From the IMG/VR virus record IMGVR_UViG_3300025086_000013, positions 30,935 to 94,934 of that record: a DNA stretch of 64,000 nucleotides. One strand, given 5' to 3'. A model generated the notes under the pieces. It worked only from the letters and a program-made list of their open reading frames with translations, ran no database searches and was not told the DNA's origin. The translations under genes and the position numbers were made by a program. Source of the stretch: a virus. Positions 12,851 through 33,300 of the stretch are shown here, one piece after another. Each line of letters opens with the position of its first letter. Positions within the stretch are counted from its first letter, which is position 1.

Positions 12851-12853
12851 TGG

Positions 12854-16282: not shown

Positions 16283-16286
16283 ATAT

Positions 16287-16294
16287 CAAAAATA
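16287..16294 (-). promoter_or_regulatory. Bacteroidota-type -7 promoter element (TAnnTTTG)
   Basis: The minus strand reads TATTTTTG-ATAT-ATG. This is an exact match to TAnnTTTG, 4 nt before the start codon at 16282. Confidence 0.5.
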
Positions 16295-16344
16295 CTAAAA
16301 TTTTTTAAGTTTTTCTATTAATCTTAATACACTTTTAAGGTGTA

Positions 16345-19236
16345 CTAATATGTGTTTCTTTTTACAAGTTTCCTTTTTGGTCTCTCTAATCCAAATCTAA
16401 CAATAGGTAAAAAAGGTGTTTCAGAGCCATATGCTTGTGTAGGCAATGTTTGAGTCAATGGTGTAGTGTTTAAACCACCTGGATACATTGATTCATTTGC
16501 AACTATATTTGCATAAGGACTAACTGATTCTGTTTGTGTACCTGTTGTTTGACTTAATATATCTGATACAACCTTTTCACTAATACCATCATCCATATAA
16601 GGATCAAGTTTTTCTAGAACATCTAATTGATCTTCTAAAAGATCTTTTTGATTTTCTTTATTTGGATAGAATGCTTTAGGATCTGTTATATCAATTATAC
16701 CACCAGTTGATGGGTCAATATCAAACTGAGGATAAGTCATATTTAAATTATGAGTCTTTGCTCTATTAGTATAAGCATTTTGTAATTGAGATGTAATCTT
16801 CTCATTTGCAGCTCTTAATGCATTATCATAATTTTCTTCAACTAACATTGTCTTATCATATAAGTTAGATAATTCTTTTTTGTTAGCTTGCTGAGTTCTC
16901 ATTTTAATTTCTGCATTTTTAGTAGAAACATCATTTGCAATTTTTGCATTTTGATTATCTACATTAGCCATTGCATCTGCAATTTGATCTGCTGCAACAC
17001 CTTGAGCTTTAGCTTGTACAGCAGCAGCTCTTTGTGGACCAGCAAAAGCAGATGCTGTACTTGCAGCAATTGCAGCTTGTTCACCTATCTTAGCAATTTG
17101 TCTTGTAGGATCTAAAAATACTGGATCTATTAAATTCTCTTGATAAGTCATTCCAATAGGATATCTTTTCTTTAAACTAAACTTATTGTCAACAGCATTC
17201 ATTATTCCTAATTGATCTTGTAACCAAAACTCTGGATCTTTTTCTTCTATTTGTTGAACCTCTTCTTCTATATCTTCTCCACATACACAACCTGTTCCTT
17301 CTTCATTATATGGTATCCAAGCCTTTCCTGCTGCAGCACAATCTGCTGCTTTTTGTGCAGCATCTGGACACTCATCTGTTTCATGTAAAGTTGATACACT
17401 TTGACGGTTATATGTATTACCATAATAACCATCATCAGATGAAATATTTTTATTTTCTCCTAGCTTTTCATCACCAACACCGGTTGCTGCAAATGTAGTG
17501 CCCTCTAACATATCACCATAATTATCATCTCTAGACATTTGATCCATTGTTATATAGAAATTTTGCATTTGCTTTATATCATCTTGGCTCATTGGCTCAC
17601 CTTCATAACCATGATTTTCTTTTAAATCTTTAATTGTATCATTATATTTCCAATTAACTTCTTCAACATACTTACCATCATCACCTTTTATTTTTTTACC
17701 ATCAGCATCTCTTCTATATTTTGTATCCCAGCCTTCATCACTTAAATAATCAGAATCATAATGCTCGCCTAAAAGATTTTTTTGTTTTGTATCTTCATAA
17801 AACAATTGATCTACTTGAGCCATTTGTTCTGTAGTTAATGAATCTACTCCTAATTGAGTTGCATACTTTTTATAAAATTCTGTTCTAAAATCTCCCCATT
17901 CATCACTTTCCCAATTTTCTGTAAGATCTGTTCTTTGTTTTTTACTACTAACTTCATTTCCATCTTGATACCTTGGAGTTCCTCCATATATAAATTCTTT
18001 TAAAGGATTTTGCTCAAAAGGATTTCCACCATGTTTTACGTAACTATAGTCTTTATTTGGATCAGGTATTGTTGAATCAGCTAATGCATTTCTTACAGGA
18101 TTACCAGCAAACATATCTGCAGTAGCTGCCATTCCTACTACATCTCCAGGACCAGGAACTGCAGAAACTAAATTAGTTACAGCATCAGTATTATACCTAG
18201 CTTTTAAAGTTGGATCATCTGTTGCCCAAGCTCTACCTTTACTCACTCCCGCATTTACTAAATCAGGAACTGCACCAAGTACAGGAAAATTTCCTGCAAC
18301 TTGTAAACCTCCTTGCAATGCATCTAGCCAACCTCCCTTTTGTGCCATAGGAATTCCAATAGGTGGAGGTGCTCCTTCAATACCACCTTCACCTTGAGGA
18401 TTAGTTGATCCTTGTCTTGTTCCATATGGTGGAATAGGTTGTGGTGGTTTTGGTAACGTAGATTGATAAAAATTATTAAATGTTTGTTTTGTTTCTAAAT
18501 CTGATATAGGTGCTTCTAAACCTTGCTGTGCTTGTTGCAATTGAGCATTTGCTTGATCTATTTTTAAAGCAAATTCTTCAGGGTTTATTCCTTGCATTTT
18601 TAAATAAGGAAATGCTGCTTTTGGAACACCTGAATCAAATCCTTTTTTAGCTTCTTGAACAAAAGCAAGATGAGATAACTTTTTCTTATTTTTGTCTAAC
18701 ATGTATTCTGCAGTATCTACAGAAATTTTATCTGCATGAGGATCATCTAAAACTCCAATGAATTTATTTAAATCATATTTTTTTGAAACTTTTGCAGGAG
18801 TTATTTTTTTCTTAGAATCAATTCCTAGTTCTTTTAACTCTCCTTTATTAAGCTTCATTGATCTTGTATCTGAATAAATAAATGATTGCTCAGGTAGATT
18901 TAAAGGGGTTCCTCCACTGTTATGTCGGTTACCAGCTATGTTATATAATTCAAATGATCCGTCATTATTTAAATCAGTTAAAGCTGTTTCACCTTTTTCT
19001 GCTTCAAGATTTGCTTCATCTCTAGGAACTGGTTTAAGAGTATTATTAATAGTTCCTCCAGATGGAAAAAATGGAATATCACCATTAGAACCTGATGGAG
19101 TATATTGAGGAAATGTATTTAAACTATAATTACGTTGCACACCAGTTTTAAATCCACCGTGTTGCATAGATTTAACAATTTTACCATTTGAAACTGAATA
19201 CCCTGAAGGTAATTTATTTATTTTAACTCTTGCCAT
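16345..19236 (-). CDS. Putative internal virion cargo protein, 963 aa, with xQxGG-delimited segments and a pre-toxin-TG-like hairpin
   Basis: N-terminal EAEKGE...GNRHNSGG...FIYSD domain of the kind seen in crAss-like cargo proteins (recognised from memory); C-terminal coiled coil; motifs MQHGG, AQKGG, VKHGG, FIYGG, YQDG. Confidence 0.6.
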   Translation of the reverse strand: MARVKINKLPSGYSVSNGKIVKSMQHGGFKTGVQRNYSLNTFPQYTPSGSNGDIPFFPSGGTINNTLKPVPRDEANLEAEKGETALTDLNNDGSFELYNIAGNRHNSGGTPLNLPEQSFIYSDTRSMKLNKGELKELGIDSKKKITPAKVSKKYDLNKFIGVLDDPHADKISVDTAEYMLDKNKKKLSHLAFVQEAKKGFDSGVPKAAFPYLKMQGINPEEFALKIDQANAQLQQAQQGLEAPISDLETKQTFNNFYQSTLPKPPQPIPPYGTRQGSTNPQGEGGIEGAPPPIGIPMAQKGGWLDALQGGLQVAGNFPVLGAVPDLVNAGVSKGRAWATDDPTLKARYNTDAVTNLVSAVPGPGDVVGMAATADMFAGNPVRNALADSTIPDPNKDYSYVKHGGNPFEQNPLKEFIYGGTPRYQDGNEVSSKKQRTDLTENWESDEWGDFRTEFYKKYATQLGVDSLTTEQMAQVDQLFYEDTKQKNLLGEHYDSDYLSDEGWDTKYRRDADGKKIKGDDGKYVEEVNWKYNDTIKDLKENHGYEGEPMSQDDIKQMQNFYITMDQMSRDDNYGDMLEGTTFAATGVGDEKLGENKNISSDDGYYGNTYNRQSVSTLHETDECPDAAQKAADCAAAGKAWIPYNEEGTGCVCGEDIEEEVQQIEEKDPEFWLQDQLGIMNAVDNKFSLKKRYPIGMTYQENLIDPVFLDPTRQIAKIGEQAAIAASTASAFAGPQRAAAVQAKAQGVAADQIADAMANVDNQNAKIANDVSTKNAEIKMRTQQANKKELSNLYDKTMLVEENYDNALRAANEKITSQLQNAYTNRAKTHNLNMTYPQFDIDPSTGGIIDITDPKAFYPNKENQKDLLEDQLDVLEKLDPYMDDGISEKVVSDILSQTTGTQTESVSPYANIVANESMYPGGLNTTPLTQTLPTQAYGSETPFLPIVRFGLERPKRKLVKRNTY

Positions 19237-19237
19237 A

Positions 19238-22200
19238 TTATATAAATTCTATTTCTGCACCTGCAGCCATTAATTCTTGTATTGTACTCTCATCTAACTC
19301 TATTGTTGTATCAATATCATCATATTGTCTATTTCTTAATTGTTCTGTTCTTCCCCCATCTTGAAATTTTAAATTTAAACCTGCTCCAATAAATGGTGAT
19401 CCTGTATCAACATTGTATCCACCTTTTATACTAACAGGTCCATAACCTGCTTCTAATCCAAGATTAATTCCTGAATTGCTATCATATTCTCCATAACCAC
19501 CAATGTTAGCTCCTGTATATTGTGCATCATTTATCATAATAGGAGAACCAGTATATCCAGCAGATAACTTCCCTTTATAGAAAGCTTCTGGACTTATGTT
19601 ACCTTCTGTAGCATTCATTAAGTTTGTCTGTGCTCCAGCTTCTCCACTTAAGTTTAAACCTAAACCACTTCTTCCTGTATAGCCAACATGACTTTTAAGA
19701 CCACCTTGTAATAAAGCATTATCTAAATCATTTCCTTCAACTCCAACAAAAGCTGAAGCTCCTGAATCCACATAAGGATTACCAGCACAACCACCACCCT
19801 TACAGCCACCGGCATTTATAAAATTATAATCAGCTTCAAGTCCTCCACCTTGTTGAAATCCTCTAAATCCAAAACCTTGAAATAATTGATTATATCCTTG
19901 CTTTTGTCTATCTGGATCACTAGATTGAAGGTTATCATCCATTTCTCTAAACTTGTCATCTTTTCTTAATGTTTCATAGCCTTTATCTATACCCCATTGT
20001 ACTCCTGGTTCAATAACACCATAATATCCAGCTAACATAGGTAATACTCTACTTCCTACACCACCACTAAAACCTTGTAAATTACGTGGATTTCTTAAAT
20101 ATGCTTTTGCCGCATCTTTAGTCCAACCTAATCCTTTAGTAAGATATTGAAAACCTTTATACCAAGCAGCTCCTTCAACTCCAGCGTTTATAATTGGAAT
20201 TGGACTTCCACTATCTATTGCATCTGCAATTGCCATACCTGCTTCTTCAACTGCATATGCTGGAAATTTAGCAGGGTTGTAACCCCATTCAGCAAAATCT
20301 ACAATCTCATTAAGAATACCATCCCCAAGTATATTCTCAGTTCCAAATCCAAGTATATTATCTTTACTGCTTACACTTACTAAATCTAATAAACCAAAAC
20401 TTCTATCTCTTAACGCATCTGTGCTTAAAGGAGGTCTAGGATTTAATTTGTTTATAAGACTTCTTCTTTCATCATCTATATCATCTTGAACATGTGAATA
20501 ATTCCATTCACCATCTTCACCTTCTCTCCATTTACCTATTTGTTGACAACTGCCATCAGGTAATCTTATATAACCATTAGGACATAATCCTTGATCTTGT
20601 TCTGAATATTCAGGATCTGTAAACATACTAATTACAGGAAGTTGATCCCAATTTCCTATAGGGTCTGTCATCCAGTCATTTAATTGTGGACTTATATCAT
20701 AATGACCTTTAACTTTTGTTTCTTCATCTAATAAGTCATAATAATTTTGGCTAAGAGCATAATCTCCTTCTCCAAGCATCTCTTCTTTGTTAGGTAGAAT
20801 ATTGGTAATTAAATTATTAGATACAACACGTGTGTTGTCCATTTGATTACTATTATCATTATATATAGTACCATCTTCTCCTATATTGTATCCAACAATT
20901 TTAGACTTAAGTTTTTCATTTTCATATTTTTGTATAACTGCTTTATCTTCTGAAGTATGCTGGTTTCTTGGATCAAGTGTAGGTAATAATTTAATTCTTT
21001 CTTCCATTTCATTTTGTTCCTCTTCTGACATATCCCACCAACCTTCTGGGTATTGTTCTAAATACCATTTACTTGCTTCTCCCATTGGATTTTGTTCATA
21101 TACATATCCAGGAAAATCTGGATTAATTACCAAACCTTCAGTTAATGTATCTCCTGGTAAAGCATTTAAGTCTGGATAAGCTATATTTAAAGAATCTAAA
21201 TCTTCTTGACTATGATATTCATAAGGAAAATCTTTCCAATAAACTTCATTTCCATCTTGTATCTCATTAGATCCTCCGCCTTGATATATAAATCTATTTA
21301 ATTCAGTACCAAACTTACCTTGTCTTGATCTAACACGTTTATTTTGAAATCTTCCCCCTGTATTAATATCTGTATCTCCTCTATTATCTTCATCACTAGC
21401 AGCTACAAATTGATTGTCTGCTAGATTCCATCTTTTCATTCCTTTAAGTCTATCTCTTTCTTTTTTCTGCTCTAACATTCTATTAAGAGGTTTAGCAATA
21501 TTAACTATACCTGTAGAAATTTTATCAAATGTTTGTACACCTTTGCTATCCATAAACCTTCTGCCTTTATTATAAGCATCAGTTGCCCATTGTTCTGTTG
21601 TTCTTTTTCCTCCGGGTGTATTATTTACATCTCCATCATTATCAATTGTGTCATCTTCAATATTATTATTATTGTTATTGTTGTTGTTATTATTGTTGTT
21701 ATTATTTCCTGGTCCAGGTTGTATTTGAGGTTCATAATCAAGAGAATGATCAGGATCTCCATAACCCCAGCCTCCCCAAGCTCCTTGTGTATAATCTCTT
21801 TCTTGTAATAAATAAGGTTCTTGTTGATCTGGTGCATTTTGTGTTTGGCTTGTATATAAATTACCTCCACCTGTTTGATAGTGACTTATAGGTTGTTGAA
21901 CATCCATTTGACCTCTTGGATTTCTTCTTTTATATTCATAATTTTTAACTCCATACTCATTAAGATTTTCAGACCCTATTTGAGCTTTAGGAATAAATCT
22001 TCTCAATACATTTTCAGCAGCACCACCTTGTCTTTGTTCTGGAAGATTATAATTACCTTGTTGATCATATTCTGAATATGGAACATTATCTGTACCAGTA
22101 AACATAGGATTATCTAACTCATCTAAACCTTCATATCTTGCACCACTATATCTAGTACCAAAAACATCAATAAGACCATCTTCATCTTTTACCATTTTGT

Positions 22201-23332
22201 CTTCTAACCAATAAGGATCATCTTTAAACTCTTGACTACTTGGGTCAATGTCTTTTACTCTAAATCCCATATAATCTGCATCAGGATTTAAAGCTTCTAT
22301 TAAATCACCTTTTCCTTGTGTTCCTTCGTCAATATCCCACTCCCCTGTTTCTTCATTATAACTTCTTTTACCAAATAATGATGGAGCATTCTCATGTCTT
22401 TGATCTAATATTTGACCAGTATAGTATTGAGTTTTTTCATCTTCAGTCATTAGATTTCCTGTCTCAGGATTAACATACATATCTTCATCTGTAGTATTTG
22501 TCCATGACTTTCTTTCATAACTTGCTGGATCAGTATCAATATAATTTTCTTTTTTAAAACTATCTACTGTACCAGCTACTGCAGCAAATAAATCAAGAAA
22601 CCCTGTATCACCTACACCAGCAAATCTTGATGTATAAGGCTCTGCACGGGGAACTCCTTTTTTTCTTTGAGGTCCCTGATACTGTTCATTAGATACATTT
22701 TTTGCACTACCAAGACCAGGGTATTTTTGATAAAAATCTTCAGTACCCCATACTTCAGATTGATTTTGTTCAGAACCATCTTGATATTCAGGTATAAAAT
22801 CAGTTAAACCTCCATATTGGTATACAGGAGGCATTCCTTCCATCCCTTGAGGAGGAGCAGGTGGCATCATTTGTTGAGGTGGTTGTTGCATAGGTTGGGG
22901 TATATTTCTTGCTCCTTCTGGAGATTGTGGCTCAACACCAGGTATTGGTGCTTCAATTGCATTAGCAGTAGCAACGGGCTCTTCTGTTAAAGCTTCTTCA
23001 ATATATTTTGCTTGTATTGCATAAGAGGCACTATCATCTTCTATGGGACCGCCTTCTTCTACACTATCACAAGTCATTCCCGCTTTACATTTAAAATAAT
23101 TTTTCCAGCAATATCCTACACCTGGTTCTTTGTCATTACAGTTTTGCATTCTTTTAGATACATCAAAAAGAGCACAACTTTGACAACCACCACCACCATC
23201 AGATTCTCTATAATTATTATTTTCTACAGCTGCATTTTCATTAGCTGCTTGTAAATTAGGTATTTCACAAGCAGAAGGACAAGCTTTAGCAGCTCCTCCT
23301 TTTTGATAACTATATGTTGCTTTATTAGCCAT
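19238..23332 (-). CDS. Putative cargo polyprotein, 1364 aa: Cys-cluster N-terminal domain, several unknown domains, C-terminal beta-barrel-like domain
   Basis: ORF track. About 10 xQxGG/xQxG[SN] motifs separate compositionally distinct segments. Confidence 0.55.
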   Translation of the reverse strand: MANKATYSYQKGGAAKACPSACEIPNLQAANENAAVENNNYRESDGGGGCQSCALFDVSKRMQNCNDKEPGVGYCWKNYFKCKAGMTCDSVEEGGPIEDDSASYAIQAKYIEEALTEEPVATANAIEAPIPGVEPQSPEGARNIPQPMQQPPQQMMPPAPPQGMEGMPPVYQYGGLTDFIPEYQDGSEQNQSEVWGTEDFYQKYPGLGSAKNVSNEQYQGPQRKKGVPRAEPYTSRFAGVGDTGFLDLFAAVAGTVDSFKKENYIDTDPASYERKSWTNTTDEDMYVNPETGNLMTEDEKTQYYTGQILDQRHENAPSLFGKRSYNEETGEWDIDEGTQGKGDLIEALNPDADYMGFRVKDIDPSSQEFKDDPYWLEDKMVKDEDGLIDVFGTRYSGARYEGLDELDNPMFTGTDNVPYSEYDQQGNYNLPEQRQGGAAENVLRRFIPKAQIGSENLNEYGVKNYEYKRRNPRGQMDVQQPISHYQTGGGNLYTSQTQNAPDQQEPYLLQERDYTQGAWGGWGYGDPDHSLDYEPQIQPGPGNNNNNNNNNNNNNNNIEDDTIDNDGDVNNTPGGKRTTEQWATDAYNKGRRFMDSKGVQTFDKISTGIVNIAKPLNRMLEQKKERDRLKGMKRWNLADNQFVAASDEDNRGDTDINTGGRFQNKRVRSRQGKFGTELNRFIYQGGGSNEIQDGNEVYWKDFPYEYHSQEDLDSLNIAYPDLNALPGDTLTEGLVINPDFPGYVYEQNPMGEASKWYLEQYPEGWWDMSEEEQNEMEERIKLLPTLDPRNQHTSEDKAVIQKYENEKLKSKIVGYNIGEDGTIYNDNSNQMDNTRVVSNNLITNILPNKEEMLGEGDYALSQNYYDLLDEETKVKGHYDISPQLNDWMTDPIGNWDQLPVISMFTDPEYSEQDQGLCPNGYIRLPDGSCQQIGKWREGEDGEWNYSHVQDDIDDERRSLINKLNPRPPLSTDALRDRSFGLLDLVSVSSKDNILGFGTENILGDGILNEIVDFAEWGYNPAKFPAYAVEEAGMAIADAIDSGSPIPIINAGVEGAAWYKGFQYLTKGLGWTKDAAKAYLRNPRNLQGFSGGVGSRVLPMLAGYYGVIEPGVQWGIDKGYETLRKDDKFREMDDNLQSSDPDRQKQGYNQLFQGFGFRGFQQGGGLEADYNFINAGGCKGGGCAGNPYVDSGASAFVGVEGNDLDNALLQGGLKSHVGYTGRSGLGLNLSGEAGAQTNLMNATEGNISPEAFYKGKLSAGYTGSPIMINDAQYTGANIGGYGEYDSNSGINLGLEAGYGPVSIKGGYNVDTGSPFIGAGLNLKFQDGGRTEQLRNRQYDDIDTTIELDESTIQELMAAGAEIEFI
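21662..21706 (-). repeat. AAT/AAC trinucleotide run encoding 15 consecutive Asn
   Basis: The plus strand shows 15 att/gtt units in frame within the 1364-aa ORF. Confidence 0.9.
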
Positions 23333-23352
23333 TTAAAAAAATCTATTATATA

Positions 23353-23367
23353 TTATAATATACTAAA
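23353..23367 (-). promoter_or_regulatory. Copy of shared promoter-like motif TTTWGTATATTAT
   Basis: The minus strand reads TTTAGTATATTATAA, about 20 nt upstream of the ATG at 23332. Confidence 0.55.
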
Positions 23368-23389
23368 TAATAAGGACATAATCTAATGA

Positions 23390-26300
23390 TTATAACTTTC
23401 TGATATGATCATAAATATGTCTTCCTTTCTTTTTAGCATCTGTATAATATAATCTATTTATTTTATCAATATATTTCTTAACTCCTTTTTCATCAGATGT
23501 ACCATCAAATTTTCCATCTATGTATTCATTGTATATTCTAATTTGTGTATTTAAATCAAAAGCTCCTCCTGGAATATTTTGTTTTATTGCTCCACCTTTT
23601 TTTATTTTTGGAGTTCCAATTCCATATATATTATCTGATCCTATTTTATTTTGTGTTTGATGAACTTCTGGAGGTTTATTATTATTTCCTGCTCCAGGTT
23701 GTAATATATAATTACCAACATCTTTCCAAAATCCTGATGATTCATATTCACCTAGAACATCTACTTTCCCTGGTTGATTTACATCTGCTATATCTAAACT
23801 ATAAACATCAATAAGTGGATAATAATTTGAAACTCTTTTTGAATAATTTTCTCTTTCTGGATTCCATGTTTGAGCTAAATAGTCTCGTACATAATTTTGA
23901 TCAGATTTCTGTTCTGCTGTAAAATTATCTGTTCTGCTATTGTATCTATGTGCAATTATTGCTTGAGTTGCTATTGCGGATTTTTGAGGATCCATAAGAT
24001 CATGCTGACTTGTTATACCTAACTCATTAAGTAATTCTTTTTCTGTATCATCTAAAGCTACATCCCATTTTATTTGTGTCCAACCAACACTATCTCTTGA
24101 ACTTTTTGCACTCAGTTTTTTCTTATTTCCTTTATAATCTATTTCTATATCACCAATCTGACCCCAACTATGATATTTTCTATTAACATCAGGATTTGTA
24201 TTACCAATACCAGATGCTTTAGATATACCAAGACCCATATTAAGAATCTCAGGATTTATATTACCCATACCACTTTCTACACCATATATACCAAAACTAG
24301 TTGGTATAAGCATGTCATATATATCACTAGGAATTCCTGAATTTACTTTTACAAGTGCATCTAAAATTTGTTTTTTATTATTAACTATTGCATTTAAATA
24401 AGGTTCTGTATGTTTTTGAAATTCCATATCTTCATGAGCAGCATAAGAATTATAATCTAAATTGCTTTCTTGAATTTTATTTTTATCTATAGAAATACTT
24501 ACAGGATGATACTTTATACTTTCAGCACTTCTCATAATACCCTGACCTTCTCTCCATACTTGATCTTCTGAATCAAAATACCAACCACCTTGGTTTCTTC
24601 CTATTTCTCCAGTTTCTGGATGTTCTGGATTTTCTACTTCTCCTTTAAATGAAAGTTTTCCATCTTGATAAATAAACGTATTTTGATCTTTAAATTCAGG
24701 AAGGACATATACATTAGTTCCTTTTTTTATTGTGCCAAGTAACTCATTTAAATCACCACACTTCATATTAATGCATCCATATGATTGTCTATTATCATCT
24801 GTAGCATGAGAATATAATCCTTTTTTTCTTTGTTGTTTTTCTTCCCAATTAACAGTATTAGGTATACCATGTAAACTCATTGATATATTTTCACCTTCTC
24901 CCATTCTATCATGTGTAAGATTAAAAGATGGAACATCTCTTCTTTGACCTGTTTCGTCCCAATAACCTGAATCTGGATCTACATTAGAGATAGTAAATAT
25001 TCCAGCTCCTGTTTGCATATTACCTGCACTCCAATCATATGTCCATAACTTCTTACCATTTTTCCATACTTTATCATCGTCATTTATTATACCATCTTTA
25101 TTTATATCTAAAGGTTTTGTAACTGTTTGTTGATCACCAGGATTTTCTCCAATTAATATATTATAACTTCTTGTTGGATCTTTTTGTCCTGGATAATATA
25201 AATGTGTTTTACCAGCTATTTTATCTACAACTAAAAAAGGATCACCAGCAGGCTTCTTAACAATTAAATTTTGACCTGGATAAAGAGTACTGTCTTCACT
25301 TAATCCGTTATCAACTAATAATTGTTTTATGCTTGTTTGATTTTCATTTGCTATTTTTCCTAAGTAGTCTCCGTCTTGTATTGTATATGATAATTCTTCT
25401 ACAGTTTCATCTGGTTTATTTTCTCCTTCATAGAATAAAATCTTTTCTACATTTTGTAATTTATTTATATCTCTATTATTATTTATTTTTCTATCTATAT
25501 TTCTCCATGGCCCTACTGCATCTTCATAGTCAGGAGTATTCTTATCACTATATATTGAATCAACTAATGTATTTTCTATTTCTATTCTATCATTAGTACT
25601 ACCATTATTTAAACCATTATTTTCTAAATCTGCTTCTGTAGGTGTCCATGCTTCTCCTTTAAGATTAGTTCTAAATTTATTTCCTCTATAATCAAATATT
25701 TTATTTGGTCCTAAATTTTCTCTAGCTTTTTCAAATGCTTCACTAAATGTTTTAAAATCATCATAAAGTAATTTTGGTGTTTTTTTATTATTAGATGGTG
25801 ATTCGTTTTTAAGTTTTACAGAATCATCAATTCTAATATGACTTGGATTAGATTTATATTGTGGATTTAATTCAAGAACTTCTTCTAAGGTCATATCATT
25901 TGATCTAGCAATTCTTGTTAAATTATCTCCCTTTTTAACTTTATAAACACTTCCTCCATCTTGAAGTTTTGGTATATCATTATCAATTAGTCCATACTCA
26001 AACAATTCATCTTTTACAATTCCTGATACTTTACCTCCTTCTTTATATTTTTTTAATTGTTGTTGAAGTGTTTTAATTTTTTTATCATTTTTTTCATACT
26101 CTCCTCCTGCTTCAAATTGTTTTTCTTTTACATCTTCTTCTGTATAATCTCCTAATAACTTTTCAACAATTTCTGGAGGTAAATTATTTAAAATATAATC
26201 TTCATAAGAACTTGATTTATCATATTCCTCTATAGATTTTCTAAAATGATTTATATATTGTTCTGGTGTTTTATTTTGTTGATCAGCATTTTCACCATAT

Positions 26301-29300
26301 AAACTTGGAAATACTTCTGATAAAGACTTTCCATCTCTAACAACATATCCAAGATATTCTCTTGTGCCTTGTCTCCCTAAAAAGTTAACTAATGCAGCAA
26401 GTTCAGTTTTATTAAATGGCATATTTATTTGACCAGAGTATTCACTGTATACTTCATCTGCTGCTGCTTTTAAACCTCTTTCACCTTTAAACAAACTTCC
26501 ATCAAATCTTTTTTTGAATGTATTTTCTTGTGCTTCAAAATCTGCTATAAACTCATCTCTTGATCCATCATATAAACTATTGTCTGTTAACTCTGAAAAT
26601 CTTTGACCATATAATCCACTTGCACTAGATTCTGAATTTTTTAATAATTGTCCATTTGCACTTTCAACAGCTATAATACCTGCCTTAAGTTTATTATAAT
26701 CAACATGATAATCATCTATTCTATCTTGAGGTATTCTTACAGGGTTACCATTTTGGTCAACATTATTAGGATCATAGTACATTCTACCATATAATTCAAA
26801 AGGTTTACCAACTATTTTTTCTGCTGGTATAGTATAAGAACCATCTTCTCCTTTTTCTCCAAATAACCAACCTGCTGAAGCAAATGCTCCTTTCATAGGT
26901 ATATCAAAATCAAACTGATCATAATAAGAAACATAAGGGAGTTTGCGTTCTTCATCATAACCCTTTGAAAGTTTATAATTATTCATAGCAAAACCTCCAG
27001 AAGAAGAATCTTTTATATATAGATTATCTTCTTGTTTTGAATTTTCAGTTTTTGGTCTTTTCTTTAAAAACTCATATGATAAAACATCACTCCATATATC
27101 ATCATCCCAATTAAAAGAAAAATATTTTTTAGCTTTTTTTATTGCACCTTTAATAGTTGGTGAAAATTTTGATTCAGATATAGTATTATTTTCTGGTTCA
27201 AAACCTAAATATTTATCCCAAAGATCTTGTGAAGATTGTTTAATATATTCAGATTGTTCTGGTGGTAAATTTAAATTTTCTCCAAAAGTATCCCATGTTT
27301 GAGTTTTTCCATCCCATTCAAATGGTAATTTTTCACCAGCAATTAGTTCTTTAAAAGCATGATCTATATTATATCCAATTGGAGTTACAGAAGATCTCAT
27401 ACGTTGTGCTAGCATTCCTGGTTCTACTTCTCCTTTTTTCTGAAACCTTACAAGTTCTGCTCCATACTTAGCTTTAGGTTTTTCAGATTTTTGTAACATT
27501 TTTTGAAGAACCTCATAATTTTTTTGACCATAAGCATTTTTAAATATATCTAAATCTCTAATTAAATCTTCACTAGTATAATCTTCTCTTTTAGTAGCAT
27601 CTAATATTGCTTGTCCTGATGTATTTATTTTTGAAGATTGTTTAGTATTTTGTAATTCTCCCATAAGTTCTTCAACGGTTTCAGAAATTTTAGGAACGTA
27701 TCTCCATTGATTTTTTCCAAAATAACCAGAATCATCTTTTACTAGATCATAATGTTCTCTTTGGTATTCTGCTCCAGGATCATCTGATTTTAACCAGTCA
27801 AGTTCGTTTTGAAATGAATCATGTTTATCAGATTTTAAAAGCCATCCATCTTTTCCTACAGAAGGTCCATGATATTTATTATCATATGTTTCAGGAATCC
27901 AACCTTCTTCTCCCCAATAATCAGATTTTTTACTTTGATTAAAATCTTTTGGTTTACCCATAGCCTCCCAAAGACCTTCCATATTATAGTTAGGATCTTC
28001 TGTTTTAAGATTTTCTGGCAAAGTGTTTACAAAAGAGTTATAATCATCTCTTTCATTTTGCATATCAGGAGTTAAAACAATTTCTGGAATATCTCCAGTA
28101 AGAGGTGGTGAACCATAAGAAGCACCTGCTGGTTTAGGAACAAATCTAGATCTTTGAGGTAATTGTGTTTTTGGATTAGTTGGCATACCATCTATAGTTA
28201 CCGGATCTAAAGTTATTGTTTGAGAATCTCTCCAATATCTAAAATCAGGATTACTTATATAATCTAGTAAATCATCATGTTTATGATTAAATCCTTCATC
28301 TCTAAAAGCTTGTTTTAATCTTCCAGGATTTTGAAACCACTTCATATCTTTTTGTGAAACTGCAAATCTAATACCTCCTCTATCATTTACAATATCTATT
28401 TCACCAGTTCTAGGATCTAAACGTAAATGGTCCTTTCCTATTAAATTGTATTTTTGTTTTATATCACCAGGAAGCATGTATAAGTCTTCATCTCTAAGTG
28501 TATAACTTAAAGGAGTTTTATCACCATAATAATTCCAACCACTCCATGTTTTACCTTGTTTGTTAACTCTTAAATCTCTTTGATAACCTTGTTGATACCA
28601 TTCTTCACGTCCATATTCTTTTCTTTCTTCTGGTGTTAAATCAAACCAACTACTATATTGACTTATGGAGCCTTTACCTTTTTTCTTTAAATCTGTTACA
28701 TATTCTGGATTAAGATTAGCAAGCCCTGATTGATCATTTCCACGTGCATAAGTTCTCCATCCACTATTACCTTTGTATTCAAGAGTGTATGTTTTCTTAC
28801 CTCTATCATTAATATTTTCTCTAACCCTCATGTTTCCTGTAGTGTTATGGACTAAACTTGGCCAAGCTTGTTGAGAATGTTTTTTTGTATCTTTAAATAA
28901 TGATTTACCTCTATAGCTTAAAAAATTATCTAATTCGTGTCTTTCTATATCAAAGTATCTTCTTTTATATTTTTTATCTTTATAATCATATTCTTCATAA
29001 TCTGTCCAATCATTTGCAGGAACATATTTTTTTTCATTAGCTCCATACTTTTTAATTTCCCACTCTTCTTTTTCATCATCATCCTCTCCTCCTTTCTGAT
29101 ATATGTTTAAATCTAATAATGGTTTTCCTGTATTAAGTTTTTCTTGTACTATATTTTTCATAAAAGGTGCAAAGGGTCCTCTATTGTCTGGCATATTTTC
29201 ATATTTGTTTAACCATTCTTTTAATTCAGGTTTACTATATTCATCAATTCTTCTTTGAAATAATCCTAAATCAGATTTTGTTGGAATGTTATCTAATTGA

Positions 29301-30373
29301 TGAGCTTGTGGAGACCATGCGCCTGACCATACATCATCAAATTTTCTTCTAGAGTGTAATCCAAATTCTGGTGATTCTTGATGAGAATAAGGAGAAGATG
29401 CTGAACTACTTACACCTCTTAAACCATCTTGTCTATATGGATTATATTTTTCCCAACCTAAATAATACTTACGGTCATTCATATTAATAGGATCTAATTT
29501 TAACGAATTAATATATTGATTATGAATTTTTCCATTTTCTAATTTAAGTTGTTTATATTCTGTCATTAAAGCATCTCTTTCAGATTTAGAAATATTTTTA
29601 TCAAATATTTTCATTCTAAGATTTTTAATTTTAGATGCATATTGCATACTTTCTTTACTTAATATAACATCATATTTTGAATCTTTTAATCTGTTATACA
29701 GTTGATAATCTCCTGTAAAAATTTTTGTTTCATTTGGATATTTAAATTGACCATAAAAATATGTATCATTTAATGAATTAGATCTAAGATTACCTGGATT
29801 AAGTTTCATAGCTCCATCCATTGGAAGATGTATAGTAGTTAGTGCATCATCCCAATTTCCTACATGATGATTTATAACTGAACTTCCACTTCCAGAAAAA
29901 TGTGTAGTACGTGCATTATTAATCAAGTTTCCATTTTGATCAAAATCTATATATCTTCCTTTATCTCGTCTTATTAAATTGCCTTCAAAAGGTTTTGTTT
30001 CATCTATAAAGTCAAATCTATTTCTTGAAATATTACCAGGCCCTTGCACATTAGATGTTGGATTTTGTTGCCCAGATGTTCCATAATTAGTAGTGTTTGG
30101 CTTTGGTTTTGGATTCCACCAATCTTTTATTTTAGAAATAATACCTTTTTTCTTTTTAGATCCTCCTCCTTGCATTAAAGGTACTTCAAATACTTCATTA
30201 CCAGGAAATATATAATCAGCACCAGGCATCATAATTTGACTATTACCAAGGTTATCAGTTCCTCTTACAGGAAAGTCTACACCTTTCATAGTTATATTAC
30301 CTGATGGTATTATATTATAGGGATTGTTTTTATCCTTGCTATTTCTTTTATATCCGTTTTTACTATATTTCAT
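23390..30373 (-). CDS. Multidomain virion-associated peptidoglycan-acting polyprotein, 2327 aa (two lysozyme/SLT-like domains, two LysM, YkuD L,D-transpeptidase-like domain, unknown domains)
   Basis: IIAVESANG...SSASGLYGQ (SLT-like); YKVKKGDNLTRIA and YTIQDGDYLGKIA (LysM); FLVVDK...SLHG...SYGCINM (YkuD); GIYGVESG...SVGWTQIKW...LMDPQKS (second SLT-like). Confidence 0.8.
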   Translation of the reverse strand: MKYSKNGYKRNSKDKNNPYNIIPSGNITMKGVDFPVRGTDNLGNSQIMMPGADYIFPGNEVFEVPLMQGGGSKKKKGIISKIKDWWNPKPKPNTTNYGTSGQQNPTSNVQGPGNISRNRFDFIDETKPFEGNLIRRDKGRYIDFDQNGNLINNARTTHFSGSGSSVINHHVGNWDDALTTIHLPMDGAMKLNPGNLRSNSLNDTYFYGQFKYPNETKIFTGDYQLYNRLKDSKYDVILSKESMQYASKIKNLRMKIFDKNISKSERDALMTEYKQLKLENGKIHNQYINSLKLDPINMNDRKYYLGWEKYNPYRQDGLRGVSSSASSPYSHQESPEFGLHSRRKFDDVWSGAWSPQAHQLDNIPTKSDLGLFQRRIDEYSKPELKEWLNKYENMPDNRGPFAPFMKNIVQEKLNTGKPLLDLNIYQKGGEDDDEKEEWEIKKYGANEKKYVPANDWTDYEEYDYKDKKYKRRYFDIERHELDNFLSYRGKSLFKDTKKHSQQAWPSLVHNTTGNMRVRENINDRGKKTYTLEYKGNSGWRTYARGNDQSGLANLNPEYVTDLKKKGKGSISQYSSWFDLTPEERKEYGREEWYQQGYQRDLRVNKQGKTWSGWNYYGDKTPLSYTLRDEDLYMLPGDIKQKYNLIGKDHLRLDPRTGEIDIVNDRGGIRFAVSQKDMKWFQNPGRLKQAFRDEGFNHKHDDLLDYISNPDFRYWRDSQTITLDPVTIDGMPTNPKTQLPQRSRFVPKPAGASYGSPPLTGDIPEIVLTPDMQNERDDYNSFVNTLPENLKTEDPNYNMEGLWEAMGKPKDFNQSKKSDYWGEEGWIPETYDNKYHGPSVGKDGWLLKSDKHDSFQNELDWLKSDDPGAEYQREHYDLVKDDSGYFGKNQWRYVPKISETVEELMGELQNTKQSSKINTSGQAILDATKREDYTSEDLIRDLDIFKNAYGQKNYEVLQKMLQKSEKPKAKYGAELVRFQKKGEVEPGMLAQRMRSSVTPIGYNIDHAFKELIAGEKLPFEWDGKTQTWDTFGENLNLPPEQSEYIKQSSQDLWDKYLGFEPENNTISESKFSPTIKGAIKKAKKYFSFNWDDDIWSDVLSYEFLKKRPKTENSKQEDNLYIKDSSSGGFAMNNYKLSKGYDEERKLPYVSYYDQFDFDIPMKGAFASAGWLFGEKGEDGSYTIPAEKIVGKPFELYGRMYYDPNNVDQNGNPVRIPQDRIDDYHVDYNKLKAGIIAVESANGQLLKNSESSASGLYGQRFSELTDNSLYDGSRDEFIADFEAQENTFKKRFDGSLFKGERGLKAAADEVYSEYSGQINMPFNKTELAALVNFLGRQGTREYLGYVVRDGKSLSEVFPSLYGENADQQNKTPEQYINHFRKSIEEYDKSSSYEDYILNNLPPEIVEKLLGDYTEEDVKEKQFEAGGEYEKNDKKIKTLQQQLKKYKEGGKVSGIVKDELFEYGLIDNDIPKLQDGGSVYKVKKGDNLTRIARSNDMTLEEVLELNPQYKSNPSHIRIDDSVKLKNESPSNNKKTPKLLYDDFKTFSEAFEKARENLGPNKIFDYRGNKFRTNLKGEAWTPTEADLENNGLNNGSTNDRIEIENTLVDSIYSDKNTPDYEDAVGPWRNIDRKINNNRDINKLQNVEKILFYEGENKPDETVEELSYTIQDGDYLGKIANENQTSIKQLLVDNGLSEDSTLYPGQNLIVKKPAGDPFLVVDKIAGKTHLYYPGQKDPTRSYNILIGENPGDQQTVTKPLDINKDGIINDDDKVWKNGKKLWTYDWSAGNMQTGAGIFTISNVDPDSGYWDETGQRRDVPSFNLTHDRMGEGENISMSLHGIPNTVNWEEKQQRKKGLYSHATDDNRQSYGCINMKCGDLNELLGTIKKGTNVYVLPEFKDQNTFIYQDGKLSFKGEVENPEHPETGEIGRNQGGWYFDSEDQVWREGQGIMRSAESIKYHPVSISIDKNKIQESNLDYNSYAAHEDMEFQKHTEPYLNAIVNNKKQILDALVKVNSGIPSDIYDMLIPTSFGIYGVESGMGNINPEILNMGLGISKASGIGNTNPDVNRKYHSWGQIGDIEIDYKGNKKKLSAKSSRDSVGWTQIKWDVALDDTEKELLNELGITSQHDLMDPQKSAIATQAIIAHRYNSRTDNFTAEQKSDQNYVRDYLAQTWNPERENYSKRVSNYYPLIDVYSLDIADVNQPGKVDVLGEYESSGFWKDVGNYILQPGAGNNNKPPEVHQTQNKIGSDNIYGIGTPKIKKGGAIKQNIPGGAFDLNTQIRIYNEYIDGKFDGTSDEKGVKKYIDKINRLYYTDAKKKGRHIYDHIRKL

Positions 30374-33300
30374 TATCTAAAGGATAGGTTAAGTTTTGTA
30401 TTAACTAATTTAAGTAACATTTTTCTTTGATGAAGAATAACTTCTCCAGGTTGGAAATGGAATTCGTCTATCCAAAAACCTTCAGTTTCTTCAACTCTTT
30501 TTCTAAGAATTAAGTTATTTACATAATGTCTAAATTTCTTTCTTTCTAATTGAGGTTTATTATAATCTAAATAAGCATCATTTAGATCTCTAATATAACC
30601 ATTTAATTGAGTTATAAACATTGACTCAGAAACATTTCTGTTTGAAGTTATATCCCAAAATTGATCAAATCTATATTTTTGTTCTACTTTACTATATAGT
30701 ATTTGAATGTCATTTGCACCAATTATTGGATAAGAAATTATATCATTTACATCAGGTGTTTGCTCTACAAGAGTTAACAACCCAGAAACTTGTTCTGTAT
30801 TATAAATAATAGCTTCATCAAAGTTATACATTAAATCATGCCATCTATCATCACATCCATAATTTAATGCACAGCCTTCGTCATCTAATTGTACTTTGTA
30901 TTCAAAAGCTTCCATTTGATATTCAACACTTCTTACTGTATTAACCGCTTGACCTACAGATTCTACAAGTTCAATTTCCCATGGATATTGTATATCATAA
31001 TAATTATTAAATAAATCACAACGTACATTATGTTTCCATAAACTGCTTGATTCAGTTACAGGAAATACTTGTGGTGCAATATTAAATTCATCTTCACAAA
31101 TTCTTATTTTACATTCTACACCTATTGTTGACTCTTGTTCATTAAATATTGTTAAACAATCTATTTCTTCTGCTGGATCCCATGTTCCTATAAAATACAT
31201 ATCATAACCTTCTGGACACTCACATGTTAATGCTGTTAGTTCTATTCCAGTAGTACCACCAGGATCTACTATTTCAGTTATTGGATCATCAGTTGAGCAT
31301 TCTAAACAACCTTCATCAAGAGCATCTTGTAAAGTAGGTTCAAGTCTTTGATCTATAACTACAGGGTGAAATTCCCAAGGAAATTCAAAATCTCCTGTAC
31401 CTATACCCCATTGACCATAACCCATAATTGTTGCATATTGAACATTTGAATAAAAGTTAGCTGTATCAGGTGGTATATTACCTGGGGGATCAAAACATCC
31501 AGGTGCTTCAATTGGATCTTCATTATCATCTAATTCACCAGCATCCCATGCTTCATATGTTTCTATATAAGTATCTTGATATGAATTTAAAGTATCTAAA
31601 GGACCTCCAAAAAATCCAAAATCAGGATCTGGATCATATGCAGTACAAGAATGAGTATGAGATGCACCAAGGTTATGTCCTATCTCATGCATTACAACTT
31701 TAAAAGACCAAGATGAATCAAAATCAGAATTTAAAAATCCTTCAGGATTAAATTCTATATTTTGACTTAAAGGTGCAGCAATACCATAAGCTCCTGGAGT
31801 TGATTCACAATAATCTGGTGATACATCATGGTTACATACTCCACCTATACCCCATGCTTGACCACCTTCAAGAACTTCATCATTCATACTAAATATATAT
31901 ACTAAACTTCTGTCAACTGCAATTAAATCTGGATCTGTTGTCCACTCAGCAATAAGAGTTTGTAAATAACAAGTTCTAATTTTATGAATACTACCATTAT
32001 CACAACCACCACAAGGAAAAGACATTGAAAAATTATCATTTAATGTCCATATACGAAGATAATTAAGTGTCACCTGTGTATCTAATTGATCTTCATATAC
32101 TTCACTAACTCCAGCTATAATCATAGTCACCCAATCTGTAAGTGCATTAATATTATCTGCTTCATCACCATTATTAAATTCTTCATAAGTATACTTATCA
32201 ATTTCAATTGCCATTTTAATACAACCTCCAGTTGAAGATCTAGCTTGTTTTGCAGATGCTTTTCTTGCTGCTTTTGTAATATCATCAGTGGTTGCACAAT
32301 CAAATATTGGAATTCGTTTTGAATCAAATGTATTATATAAAATATATTTAGTTTTATCTTTACTTGCTTTCTTTTTAACATCTGAATCTTCAACAGTAAA
32401 TTCATAAATTTTCTTACCCTTTCTAATTACTCCAAACATTTTAGTTTCCATAAATGTTATAGATCCTTTTAAATCTTTTTCTCCACGAATTTTATATGAA
32501 ACTGCTTTAGATACATATGGATCTTTCACTCTTCCTTTTTCTGTTTCTAAAACTACTTGAAAATCTTTTGAATGTACATTGACAAGTTCTAATGGTAATT
32601 TAAGAGTTTGGTTATCCATAAAAGGAACAGTTATACTAAATCTTTTAGGCTTTGATAATCTAATGTCTTTAAGTATACTATCTTCTATTTCAAAGTAAAT
32701 AGAATTATTTTTATTTTTTGTTACACTTGCATTTTCAATATGTATTCTATTAAATGGTGGCATATCATCACCATCATCTATAATGGCAAAATCAAATGTA
32801 AAATCAGGAGTTCCTTGACCATAATTACCACCATATTCAACTTTACAACATTGTGGAGGATCTAATGTTTCATCAAGTTCATAACCAGGACCACACTCCC
32901 AAGTTGCATCATTTATACACATACCAAATTCATCCATAGTATACCCTGGAGGACATATTGGATCCAATCCTTTTATTGTATTAGTTGTAAGAAAATGATT
33001 ATAACTAGACATAGTAAGTTCAGGATGCCAATCATGAAATGATATCCATCCTTTAATCTTAGGGTCATAACTTACCGTCCAGGATATATCTGTAAAAAAC
33101 TCATTATTTTCTAAATCAACAGGTGTTATAACATCTATATAAGGAGCAGGATCACATATTCTTTCTACACACTCTACACATTCACCTTCACATTCTATAC
33201 AGTCTTGTTCTGTTGCAGGAAAAGGAGTTCCAGTAAAAAATAAATCTCCTTGAGGACAATCACAAGCAAATACTGGATCAGGTACTGGTGGTTGAAAATT

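Follow-up and report, generated by a model that had tools for sequence, protein, structure and literature searches.

A recurrent hydrophobic-Gln-x-Gly-Gly peptide at module junctions and in leaders of candidate cargo proteins of a marine crAss-like phage

Few viruses of the gut or the sea are as abundant as the crAss-like phages. In crAss001, the cargo genes gp45 and gp46 (C1/C2) follow the muzzle gene and precede the RNA-polymerase block (PMC10172136), and the paper describing this cargo reported neither a motif nor any processing (Bayfield et al. 2023, PMC10172136). Processing of the giant proteins of crAss-like phages has been suspected elsewhere (bioRxiv 10.1101/2020.03.07.982082; PMC5512222). 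The diverse internal proteins of phage T4 have only a targeting sequence in common (PMC3012670), and in phiKZ-like giant phages (SPN3US) the ejection proteins are cut by a prohead protease (PMC7411985, PMC5694885). The polyvalent proteins of phages and conjugative elements are giant late-gene strings of unrelated effector domains, including cell-wall enzymes (Iyer et al. 2017, PMC5512222); their delivery together with the DNA is presumed, and processing by an embedded zincin-like peptidase has been proposed for some (PMC5512222). No description of the motif reported here turned up in the literature, whether under the peptide strings or under the processing of crAss cargo.

The DNA analysed belongs to the 95 kb genome of a marine crAss-like phage (IMGVR_UViG_3300025086_000013), and the window, i.e. 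the whole stretch under study, comprises 64,000 nt of it. Three large ORFs (P0001, P0002 and P0003) sit between the muzzle gene (Pfam crAss_MUZ) and an RNA-polymerase block, and are adjoined by the ring proteins R1/R2 and the crAss capsid and portal genes (Pfam). The gene order, from muzzle to cargo ORFs to virion RNA-polymerase genes, agrees with crAss001 gp44-gp50 and with nine relatives, and it is from this position that a cargo identity is deduced. The ORFs and the two metalloprotease-like motifs are as follows.

nt 2-12850 (-), part within the window of a 5442-aa ORF of the RNA-polymerase block; no motif
nt 6248-6262 (-), HEAFH in the 5442-aa ORF; HE[AP]FH is retained in G001 and G002; no Pfam peptidase match
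nt 16345-19236 (-), P0001, 963 aa, third variable cargo-position ORF, with a KINKLP-type N-terminal header and a conserved domain
nt 19238-23332 (-), P0002, 1364 aa, second variable cargo-position ORF, with most motifs
nt 23390-30373 (-), P0003, 2327 aa, first variable cargo-position ORF, directly downstream of the muzzle gene
nt 30373-39036 (-), muzzle protein, 2887 aa, with an inserted metzincin (Pfam crAss_MUZ and Reprolysin)
nt 31657-31689 (-), HEIGHNLGASH of the muzzle metzincin

Taken jointly with the role proposed below for the peptide, the view that this is a divergent marine crAss-like phage in which the three ORFs are variable internal 'cargo' (ejection) protein genes is put forward tentatively. 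The three large products are probably carried in the particle. None of the three ORFs matches Pfam crAss_CARG1 (PF25725) or crAss_CARGO2 (PF25712) at E <= 0.01, nor do residues 1-300 of P0001 even at E <= 1; crAss001 gp45 and gp46 match their Pfam cargo families at 2e-66 and 6e-219. The portal-binding domain (crAss001 gp45, phi14:2 g070) was considered as a homologue of P0001 and rejected (hhalign E 0.22 and 0.44; no Pfam match). Searches of PDB sequences with the three ORFs returned LysM only, and tblastn of P0001, P0002 and one small basic protein against GenBank phages gave no match. P0003 is a late-gene product that unites several effector domains unrelated to one another, namely two LysM domains and a YkuD domain (Pfam), for which AF2 and Foldseek confirm a LysM/L,D-transpeptidase fold, as well as further folded modules. 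Its C-terminal half is common to 1549 relatives, and its core occurs at varying positions in proteins of 400-2700 aa.

The strict motif is defined here as [FYMLIVW]Q.GG and the wider form as phi[QKE].GG (phi = hydrophobic), and counts within the genome were compared with within-protein shuffles. The strict motif occurs 19 times in the 95 kb genome against about 2 expected. Ten of the 19 copies are in the three ORFs, where the 963-, 1364- and 2327-aa proteins carry 1, 6 and 3 (0.11, 0.32 and 0.21 expected); the corresponding counts for the wider form are 3, 7 and 6 (0.37, 1.08 and 1.06 expected; p <= 0.007 each). There are no strict copies in the 5442-, 2887-, 1917-, 1323-, 1142- and 923-aa ORFs, and none in the capsid, portal, terminase, muzzle or RNA-polymerase block. 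An earlier note on this DNA had listed 22 such items in the three proteins and seen no series in capsid, portal or terminase. All coordinates checked translate as given, on the minus strand, and the absence from those structural genes is borne out, as is enrichment over shuffled controls for both forms. Fifteen of the 22 items fit phi-[QKE]-x-G-G, the remainder (YQDGN, YQDGS, AQIGS, IQDGN, FIYGG, QRQGG and FQKKG) being loose variants. The three proteins are indeed enriched, but the series is not confined to them, as eight further strict copies occur beyond the window, in five small proteins encoded at genome 8861-17638. These carriers are 144-275 aa in length, with a pI of 10.1-10.4 in four and 6.7 in one, and the pairing of motif-bearing cargo ORFs with small basic carriers recurs in G001 and G002.

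Nine related viral contigs show the same enrichment, and across 47 proteins phi..GG was found 268 times against 119.5 +/- 11.8 expected. In 149 independent homologues the strict motif occurs 100 times against 13.1 expected (z 25, 7.6x), with GG alone and the reversed motif each at 1.04x and Ala/Ser variants unenriched. The full peptide approximates [LIVM]-P-x-[FYM]-[QK]-x-G-G-[ES]-hydrophobic; in the sequence logo F, M or Y takes the third place before GG (P5) and Gln or Lys P4, while GG is followed by E/S and then I/L/V. Pro after GG occurs at background frequency, i.e. it is not avoided. Codons within the motif match genome usage, indicating that selection acts on the protein, and a nucleotide recombination or recoding signal was rejected on the same ground. 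The sites and modules in the three ORFs are listed below.

nt 19153-19167 (-), MQHGG, residues 24-28 of P0001, end of the N-terminal header, in a low-pLDDT region
nt 18592-19029 (-), conserved domain of P0001, residues ~70-215, invariant in nine relatives
nt 18025-18345 (-), AQKGG (residue 298, nt 18331-18345) and VKHGG (residue 400) in the variable middle of P0001
nt 23294-23308 (-), YQKGG, residues 9-13 of P0002, N-terminal leader, identical in P0008 and P0011
nt 22808-22822 (-), YQYGG, residues 171-175 of P0002, following a Pro/Gln-rich stretch
nt 21866-21880 (-), YQTGG, residues 485-489 of P0002, conserved, inside an alignable block
nt 21272-21286 (-), YQGGG, residues 683-687 of P0002, ending a conserved '...RQGK[FY]G.EL...' cassette; 10 HSP ends within 12 aa
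nt 19844-19858 (-), FQQGG, residues 1159-1163 of P0002, opening the Gly-rich unit; 12 HSP ends within 12 aa
nt 19367-19843 (-), Gly-rich beta-type unit of P0002, among homologues only in P0010 and P0016
nt 19352-19366 (-), FQDGG, residues 1323-1327 of P0002, junction to the C-terminal tail; 16 HSP ends within 12 aa
nt 19241-19351 (-), conserved C-terminal tail of P0002-type proteins, ending ...ELMAAGAEIEFI
nt 30161-30175 (-), MQGGG, residues 67-71 of P0003, end of a conserved 66-aa N-terminal module
nt 29087-29101 (-), YQKGG, residues 425-429 of P0003; no relative aligns at this site
nt 26033-26116 (-), FEAGG (residue 1420) and YKEGG (residue 1443) of P0003, at helix breaks
nt 25952-25966 (-), LQDGG, residues 1470-1474 of P0003, linker before LysM 1 (AF2 low-pLDDT segment 62-74)
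nt 24704-25951 (-), LysM 1, unknown module, LysM 2 and YkuD catalytic domain of P0003 (Pfam, AF2, Foldseek)
nt 23591-23605 (-), IKKGG, residues 2257-2261 of P0003, long linker before the C-terminal module (AF2 low-pLDDT segment 825-871)
nt 23393-23590 (-), conserved helical C-terminal module (~65 aa) of P0003-type proteins

All three ORFs are mosaic and modular, and BLAST comparison shows relatives swapping modules at the motif points, in agreement with the plug-and-play modularity that had been suggested. BLAST HSP ends fall within 8 aa of a motif in 14.5% of cases against 4.7% expected (about 3x; 0 of 500 shuffles), with hot spots in the 1364-aa ORF at sites 683/691, 1159 and 1323. Aligned blocks account for 37% of residues but hold only 10% of the motifs, and their ends are 2x motif-enriched. 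In the AF2 model of P0003 residues 1400-2327 (mean pLDDT 80), all four GG motifs overlap segments with pLDDT < 50, which make up 8% of the model; a composition-based disorder scale gave a weak, non-significant trend around the motifs. The claim that motifs lie at domain boundaries thus stands for most sites, the exceptions being VEEGG 91, AQIGS 450 and YQTGG 485, which fall inside conserved blocks. Leaders are also favoured: 7 of 14 carrier proteins have a motif in the first 30 aa (2.2 expected, P 0.001), as do 7 of 13 cargo ORFs of L005-L011. In relatives, a WL..Y peptide begins proteins as M-[SG]-W-L-x-x-Y-x-Q-G-G, links modules as Y-G-G-W-L-x-x-Y-Q-x-G-G, and closes proteins without GG as ...YGGWLSKYK-stop. 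Each conserved C-terminal tail begins directly after x-x-x-G-G. These comparisons support the motif as a marker of module junctions and leaders.

The individual sites illustrate this. The GG of MQHGG in P0001 is retained in 6 of 9 relatives, and HG in 8 of 9; in the AF2 model of P0001 residues 1-300 only 116-250 are confident, with no Foldseek match in the PDB. P0002 shows mosaic homology to P0007-P0022 and L003-L008. The '...RQGK[FY]G.EL...' cassette also precedes the motif in L003, L004 and P0010, the FQDGG site has an equivalent x-x-x-G-G in 10 relatives, and the tail beyond it is common to P0007-P0022 and L003-L008, the upstream bodies of which differ among themselves. The 66-aa N-terminal module of P0003 matches L007, L009, L010 and L011, with HSPs ending at residue 66-68. 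FEAGG and YKEGG overlap AF2 low-pLDDT segments 24-28 and 48-50 (model numbering) and are retained as F..GG and Y..GG in L003 and L004. The first LysM strand begins at model residue 76 and is immediately preceded by LQDGG, as the earlier note had remarked, and there is no GG motif inside the LysM-to-YkuD region. Ahead of the same C-terminal module, L005 has MKRGG and L007 has FKPGG. Its occurrence in proteins that are otherwise unrelated is tag-like.

Our tentative preference is that the peptide is an uncut hinge and address on modular internal (cargo) proteins, comparable to the capsid-targeting sequence of T4. Each of the three ORFs would then encode a chain of exchangeable modules, and the peptide would be a short linear motif placed in flexible inter-module linkers, in N-terminal leaders and ahead of conserved terminal tails. 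Gly-Gly could serve as the hinge, allowing each module to fold, unfold and thread through the portal and tail separately. The hydrophobic-Gln/Lys part may be a multivalent recognition element by which giant effectors and small basic proteins, though unrelated, are drawn into the nascent capsid core, as in T4; both classes would then be located in the virion. The small basic carriers suggest a T4-like internal-protein system in phages of quite another order. For capsid loading, the conserved terminal tails beyond the motif are no worse candidates.

An artefact of chance or of Gly- and Gln-rich low-complexity composition is hardly credible, and is refuted for the GG forms. The motif definition in the earlier note was loose, several of its items (G then S, N or K) are at chance level, and the loose form gives 6 against 2.8 in P0003 and 7 against 2.7 in the muzzle; against this stand the excess of the strict form in the independent set, the flat GG, reversed and Ala/Ser controls, and the conservation of orthologous sites. 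A distinctly unlikely view is that the peptide is a passive, convenient domain end (hydrophobic cap, Gly-Gly break, helix or strand start) which nothing recognises and which is kept because a module swap can succeed only where it breaks in a linker of this kind. It fits the position of motifs in low-confidence AF2 linkers, the E/S and I/L/V after GG, which resemble the start of a new secondary-structure element, the variation of site sequences among orthologues, and the fact that no binding partner was found. Ordinary linkers, however, do not retain Gln/Lys at -2 and Pro at -5 across 1500 proteins, and passivity gives no reason for placement 6-12 residues from the N-terminus, for occurrence in small, non-modular basic proteins, or for other multidomain ORFs of the genome (5442, 2887 and 1917 aa) being entirely devoid of the motif.

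The ORFs could instead be polyproteins, and the small basic proteins precursors, cut at or near Gly-Gly by a protease during capsid maturation or after ejection, with leaders removed, modules freed and terminal tails released, as in T4, phiKZ-like phages, adenovirus and herpesvirus scaffolds. This is rather unlikely, and the cutting at the motif proposed in the earlier note is unsupported. Consistent with it are motifs in exposed linkers where modules meet and in short leaders (9-28 residues) at the N-terminus, and small basic carriers that resemble T4 internal proteins and adenovirus core precursors. In L010 and L011, moreover, an upstream module ends in AKYGG or YKYGG and is followed by a Met-Lys-Lys-Lys-Ile header, which is the start of a free-standing P0001-type protein. 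A zincin-like HE[AP]FH.VFR, near residue 2200 of the neighbouring giant ORF, is retained in three genomes, and this conserved motif counts against an uncut peptide; yet zincins of this kind are presumed to occur in crAss-like phages generally, ones without the Gly-Gly motif included, and the giant ORF bearing HEAFH itself has no motif sites. Pfam scans of most called ORFs, including all large ones (E <= 0.01-0.05; a divergent fold could escape Pfam), detected no Gly-Gly-cutting cysteine protease (C5/C39/C48-type) and no prohead protease (S77/S78/U9-type); no peptidase domain was detected in the three ORFs. The muzzle metzincin was rejected as the cognate protease, its insert being absent from the muzzles of G002 and L009, although the cargo ORFs of both are rich in the motif. 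Unlike the adenovirus consensus, which has the hydrophobic residue at P4, the present motif has it at P5, Pro is not avoided after GG, and the ...YGGWLSKYK-stop ends retain the peptide without a scissile GG. In crAss001 gp45, one F-I-N-E-G-G lies inside the resolved continuous domain 425-552 (PMC10172136). An overlooked maturation of the T4/adenovirus kind, in which one code sends giant modular effectors and small basic DNA-condensing proteins inside and a virion-packaged zincin then cuts it, freeing a variable cocktail of injected enzymes, is very doubtful.

The peptide would bear on the way in which crAss-like phages fill their particles with megadaltons of protein and deliver it by injection. 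If over a thousand cargo-type proteins carry one short code, it would help to tell which proteins are packed, and would also inform the acquisition of effector modules and the loading of foreign proteins into such capsids. In crAss001, gp45 opens with a header of the same kind, Lys-rich and followed by P-x-x-F-D-T-G-G at 17-21, and has phi-x-x-G-G 15 aa past a ring-bound helix and 7 aa past a portal-bound domain. The gp45 copies at 260, 370 and 559 fall a little way outside the resolved segments 214-245 and 425-552 (map, PMC10172136), and hence are not seen docked to any symmetric component, which speaks against the preferred reading. There is no detectable sequence or profile similarity to C1/C2, and the modules here are much larger and more numerous. 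Motif enrichment is weak in gp45 (2 vs 0.8) and lacking in gp46, and phi14:2 g068-g070 have no motif by the Q/K/E form; these phages are therefore poor models for the motif, which is not needed by all crassviruses.

Adenovirus protease cuts after the second Gly of (M/I/L)-x-G-G-x, and ASFV polyproteins are cut after G-G. Both share with the present proteins a hydrophobic residue followed by Gly-Gly and carriers that include small basic DNA-associated proteins, but the hydrophobic residue here is one position further out, no clan CE protease gene was found, and the hosts and virus lineages are unrelated. The work on polyvalent proteins (Iyer et al. 2017) defines domains and not a junction peptide, and no peptidase domain of the embedded kind was detected in the three ORFs. 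The phiKZ-like ejection system likewise has numerous large internal proteins, in which a short common site marks the borders of propeptides and domains; that site, however, is of the A/S/G-x-E type and accompanies a gp21-like protease gene, neither of which was found here. The internal proteins of T4 are similarly a diverse set, including small basic ones, with a short near-N-terminal leader, and are packed with the DNA and injected (PMC3012670). The leader of T4, with L/I-x-E at its end, is taken off by the prohead protease gp21, the like of which was not found here; since the T4 tag is itself lost to a protease, tagging and cutting are not exclusive. Unlike the T4 leader, the peptide described here is also repeated inside large proteins and ahead of their C-terminal tails.

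The record is a single viral contig of 94,934 bp, of which the window covers bases 30935–94934, with about 30% G+C, and nearly all large ORFs, which were called mechanically, lie on its minus strand. The phage is a divergent marine crAss-like one; its capsid protein shares just 22–29% identity with those of named phages and has more than 3000 metagenomic relatives, Tara samples being a frequent source. The structural genes recognised in the window are:

30373–39036, crassvirus muzzle protein (Pfam)
39047–40629, ring proteins 1 and 2 (Pfam)
53718–55352, crassvirus major capsid protein (Pfam)
56808–59579, P22-like portal (Pfam)
59686–61875, large terminase (PHROGs)

The three variable ORFs in the cargo position (P0003, P0002 and P0001; 2327, 1364 and 963 aa) are flanked by the muzzle gene on one side and by a block made up of the 1142-, 5442- and 1917-aa ORFs on the other. 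In Bacteroides phage crAss001 the same position is occupied by cargo genes gp45 and gp46 (PMC10172136), and from gene order we infer a virion location for the three proteins. No similarity of P0001–P0003 to gp45 or gp46 was found by sequence or profile. Elsewhere in the window, a phage-encoded Cpn10 (GroES-like) co-chaperonin (61868–62170; Pfam, E = 2e-12) adjoins the terminase gene, and a 435-aa ORF with no family match (55394–56701), acidic and helix-prone with a basic C-terminus, lies between the portal and capsid genes, where a scaffolding protein is usually encoded. The early region of the genome carries a radical SAM gene similar to spore photoproduct lyase (genome nt 7033–7899; Pfam SPL, 1e-27), together with two genes for glycosyltransferases.

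The earlier note described hydrophobic-Gln/Lys/Glu-x-Gly-Gly motifs in these three ORFs, and its coordinates were correct for every motif checked. Against shuffles within each protein, which preserve composition alone, the strict form, [FYMLIVW]-Q-x-G-G, occurs 19 times genome-wide where about 2 copies are expected, and 10 times in P0001–P0003 (0.64 expected); the 5442-, 2887-, 1917-, 1323-, 1142- and 923-aa ORFs have no copy. Enrichment is confirmed for the Q/K/E form as well, with 3, 7 and 6 copies in the 963-, 1364- and 2327-aa ORFs (0.4, 1.1 and 1.1 expected). Frequencies near chance are seen for the variants with a final G-S, G-N or G-K that had also been counted, and two of this kind form beta-hairpin turns within a folded domain of an AlphaFold model. 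Codons within the motif match genome usage, so the constraint acts at the protein level. P0002 also contains a run of 15 consecutive asparagines (residues 543–557; window 21662–21706).

A whole-record scan of two related genomes, G002 (121,758 bp, complete) and G001, found the motif limited to cargo-position ORFs, small proteins and a single, conserved ribonucleotide reductase site. The gene order is kept in nine related IMG/VR loci: the muzzle gene is followed by three variable ORFs, a 1142-like ORF and the giant ORF (5442 aa in this phage). Their variable ORFs are of very different lengths, are similar to P0001–P0003 piecemeal, and carry 2–12 motifs each in five loci and the laxer phi-x-x-G-G (phi, hydrophobic residue) in the remainder; their conserved neighbour ORFs carry no motifs. 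The P0001 homologue of the closest relative (L003, 8455–10946) is divided into two ORFs of 401 and 428 aa, about 60 residues past a motif and not on it, which may represent a frameshift or assembly error. Residues 1400–2327 of P0003, used in a profile-free HMMER search, matched 1549 proteins of 400–2700 aa, which have in common a LysM/YkuD core at very variable positions. In the best 149 of these 1549 (169,000 residues) there are 100 copies of the strict motif versus 13.1 expected (z = 25) and 257 of the Q/K/E form versus 74, and the controls are unenriched (GG alone and the reversed pattern, each 1.04-fold; Ala-Ala and Ser-Ser versions). That the motif is an artefact appears highly improbable.

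Within the same best 149 of 1549 proteins, 10% of motifs fall inside aligned blocks, though these make up 37% of residues, and motifs lie within 10 residues of block ends at twice the expected rate. For the cargo ORFs of ten genomes, 14.5% of BLAST alignment ends, which are mutually dependent data points, are within 8 residues of a motif, compared with 4.7% expected (0 of 500 shuffles). The view that motifs mark boundaries holds for P0002 sites 683/691, 1159 and 1323, which are hot spots of alignment ends, but not for sites 91, 450 and 485, which are within conserved blocks. An AlphaFold model of P0003 residues 1400–2327 (alignment of 64 sequences, mean pLDDT 80) contains LysM and L,D-transpeptidase folds, and segments with pLDDT below 50 make up 8% of its chain. 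All four Gly-Gly motifs in this part (1420, 1443, 1470 and 2257) overlap such segments, for which the estimated chance is about 1 in 7000, so the refuting condition set in the earlier note, motifs within folded domains, does not refute the proposal here. One is immediately ahead of the first LysM strand, and another is in the long linker preceding the C-terminal module.

The motif is not confined to the three adjacent ORFs in which the earlier note saw it; five small proteins encoded outside the window (genome nt 8861–17638) carry 8 additional strict copies. The family to which they belong is:

L001 (whole record) genome 8861–13047 and 17045–17638, minus strand, outside the window: small-protein family, mostly very basic and Gly-rich

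Four of the five carriers are very basic (pI 10.1–10.4, Lys+Arg up to 25%), most have the motif at residue 8–17, and three end in G-G-A-x-G-P-[HN]-G-I-L. The family has common cassettes, K-G-[MT]-[KR]-V-P-G-M-phi-x-[DE]-G-G, and its genes surround a holin gene. Counterparts occur in both G001 and G002, with pI about 10–11 and the same cassettes and tails. These may be internal DNA-associated proteins.

Upstream of Gly-Gly the motif logo has Pro at -5, Phe/Met/Tyr at -3 and Gln/Lys at -2; downstream it has Glu/Ser at +1, where Pro is at background level, and Ile/Leu/Val at +2. An extended cassette, (G)K[YF]G-x(3-6)-phi-Q-x-G-G, is recurrent. The motif is within residues 1–30 in 7 of 14 carriers in this genome (2.2 expected, P = 0.001) and in 7 of 13 cargo ORFs of loci L005–L011. 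One peptide is found in relatives as a protein start (M-[SG]-W-L-x-x-Y-x-Q-G-G), a module joint (Y-G-G-W-L-x-x-Y-Q-x-G-G) and a protein end (...Y-G-G-W-L-S-K-Y-K-stop or G-G-x-G-W-L-x-x-Y-x-stop). In L010 and L011 a module ending AKYGG or YKYGG is followed directly by a Met-Lys-Lys-Lys-Ile header, the start of a free-standing P0001-type protein. Every conserved C-terminal tail directly follows x-x-x-G-G, including the helical module of P0003-type proteins, the G-P-[HN]-G-I-L of the small basic proteins, and:

Window 19241–19351: C-terminal tail of P0002, an acidic amphipathic helix ending AAGAEIEFI

P0002-type proteins keep this tail (...AAGAEIE-hydrophobic) at their extreme end while their upstream bodies differ from one another, which makes it a candidate docking peptide. 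A Gly-rich beta-type unit of P0002 (window 19367–19843), starting C-x-G-G-G-C, is present among homologues in P0010 and P0016 only.

These observations are consistent with a short linear motif, placed in flexible linkers, that marks the borders of modules and the leaders on a defined protein set. That it is found close to protein starts and in small basic proteins of non-modular build, and not in the other giant ORFs, speaks for recognition by some factor; these features also weigh against a passive linker, which we consider unlikely. Cleavage at the motif, one of the two options in the earlier note (polyproteins cut into effectors), comes second and is rather doubtful. Pfam scans covering most called ORFs, every large one included, gave no match to the adenain, Ulp1, C39 or prohead-protease families. 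This lack of a matching protease, the protein ends that have the peptide without Gly-Gly, and the background frequency of +1 Pro are weak arguments against obligatory cleavage after Gly-Gly. Two peptidase-like sequences are present in the window:

31657–31689, within 30373–39036: complete metzincin signature HEIGHNLGASH in a muzzle insert (Pfam Reprolysin)
6248–6262, in the 5442-aa ORF at residue 2197: zincin-like HEAFH.VFR

The metzincin was rejected as cognate protease because the insert is missing from relatives with motif-rich cargo ORFs (muzzles of G002 and L009). The zincin-like sequence, HE[AP]FH.VFR, is conserved near residue 2200 of the giant ORF in three genomes (G001 2174, G002 2207); this ORF has no Pfam peptidase match, DUF7831 alone being detected, further downstream. 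To our knowledge a zincin-like domain is general among crAss-like phages. Little or no motif enrichment is seen in the crAss001 and phi14:2 cargo proteins. Such a domain is on record in crAss-like phages, with processing speculated (bioRxiv 10.1101/2020.03.07.982082; PMC5512222). HExxH motifs (HEAFHEF, HEIGH) also occur in variable cargo ORFs of some relatives (L010 3471–7292, residue 407; L007 4272–9737, residue 1172), so peptidase-like modules may belong to the swappable repertoire of these ORFs.

Given the signs of recognition and the weak arguments against obligatory cutting, we tentatively favour an uncut hinge-plus-address peptide, which would resemble the capsid-targeting sequence of T4 (PMC3012670). 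The crAss001 paper (PMC10172136) describes no motif and no cleavage; its peptide data are compatible with either a cut or an uncut protein. In crAss001 gp45 one F-I-N-E-G-G lies within the resolved, continuous domain 425–552; the Lys-rich header at the protein start closes with F-D-T-G-G, F-A-E-G-G follows 15 residues past the ring-bound helix 214–245, and F-A-Y-G-G follows 7 residues past the portal-bound domain 425–552 (PMC10172136).
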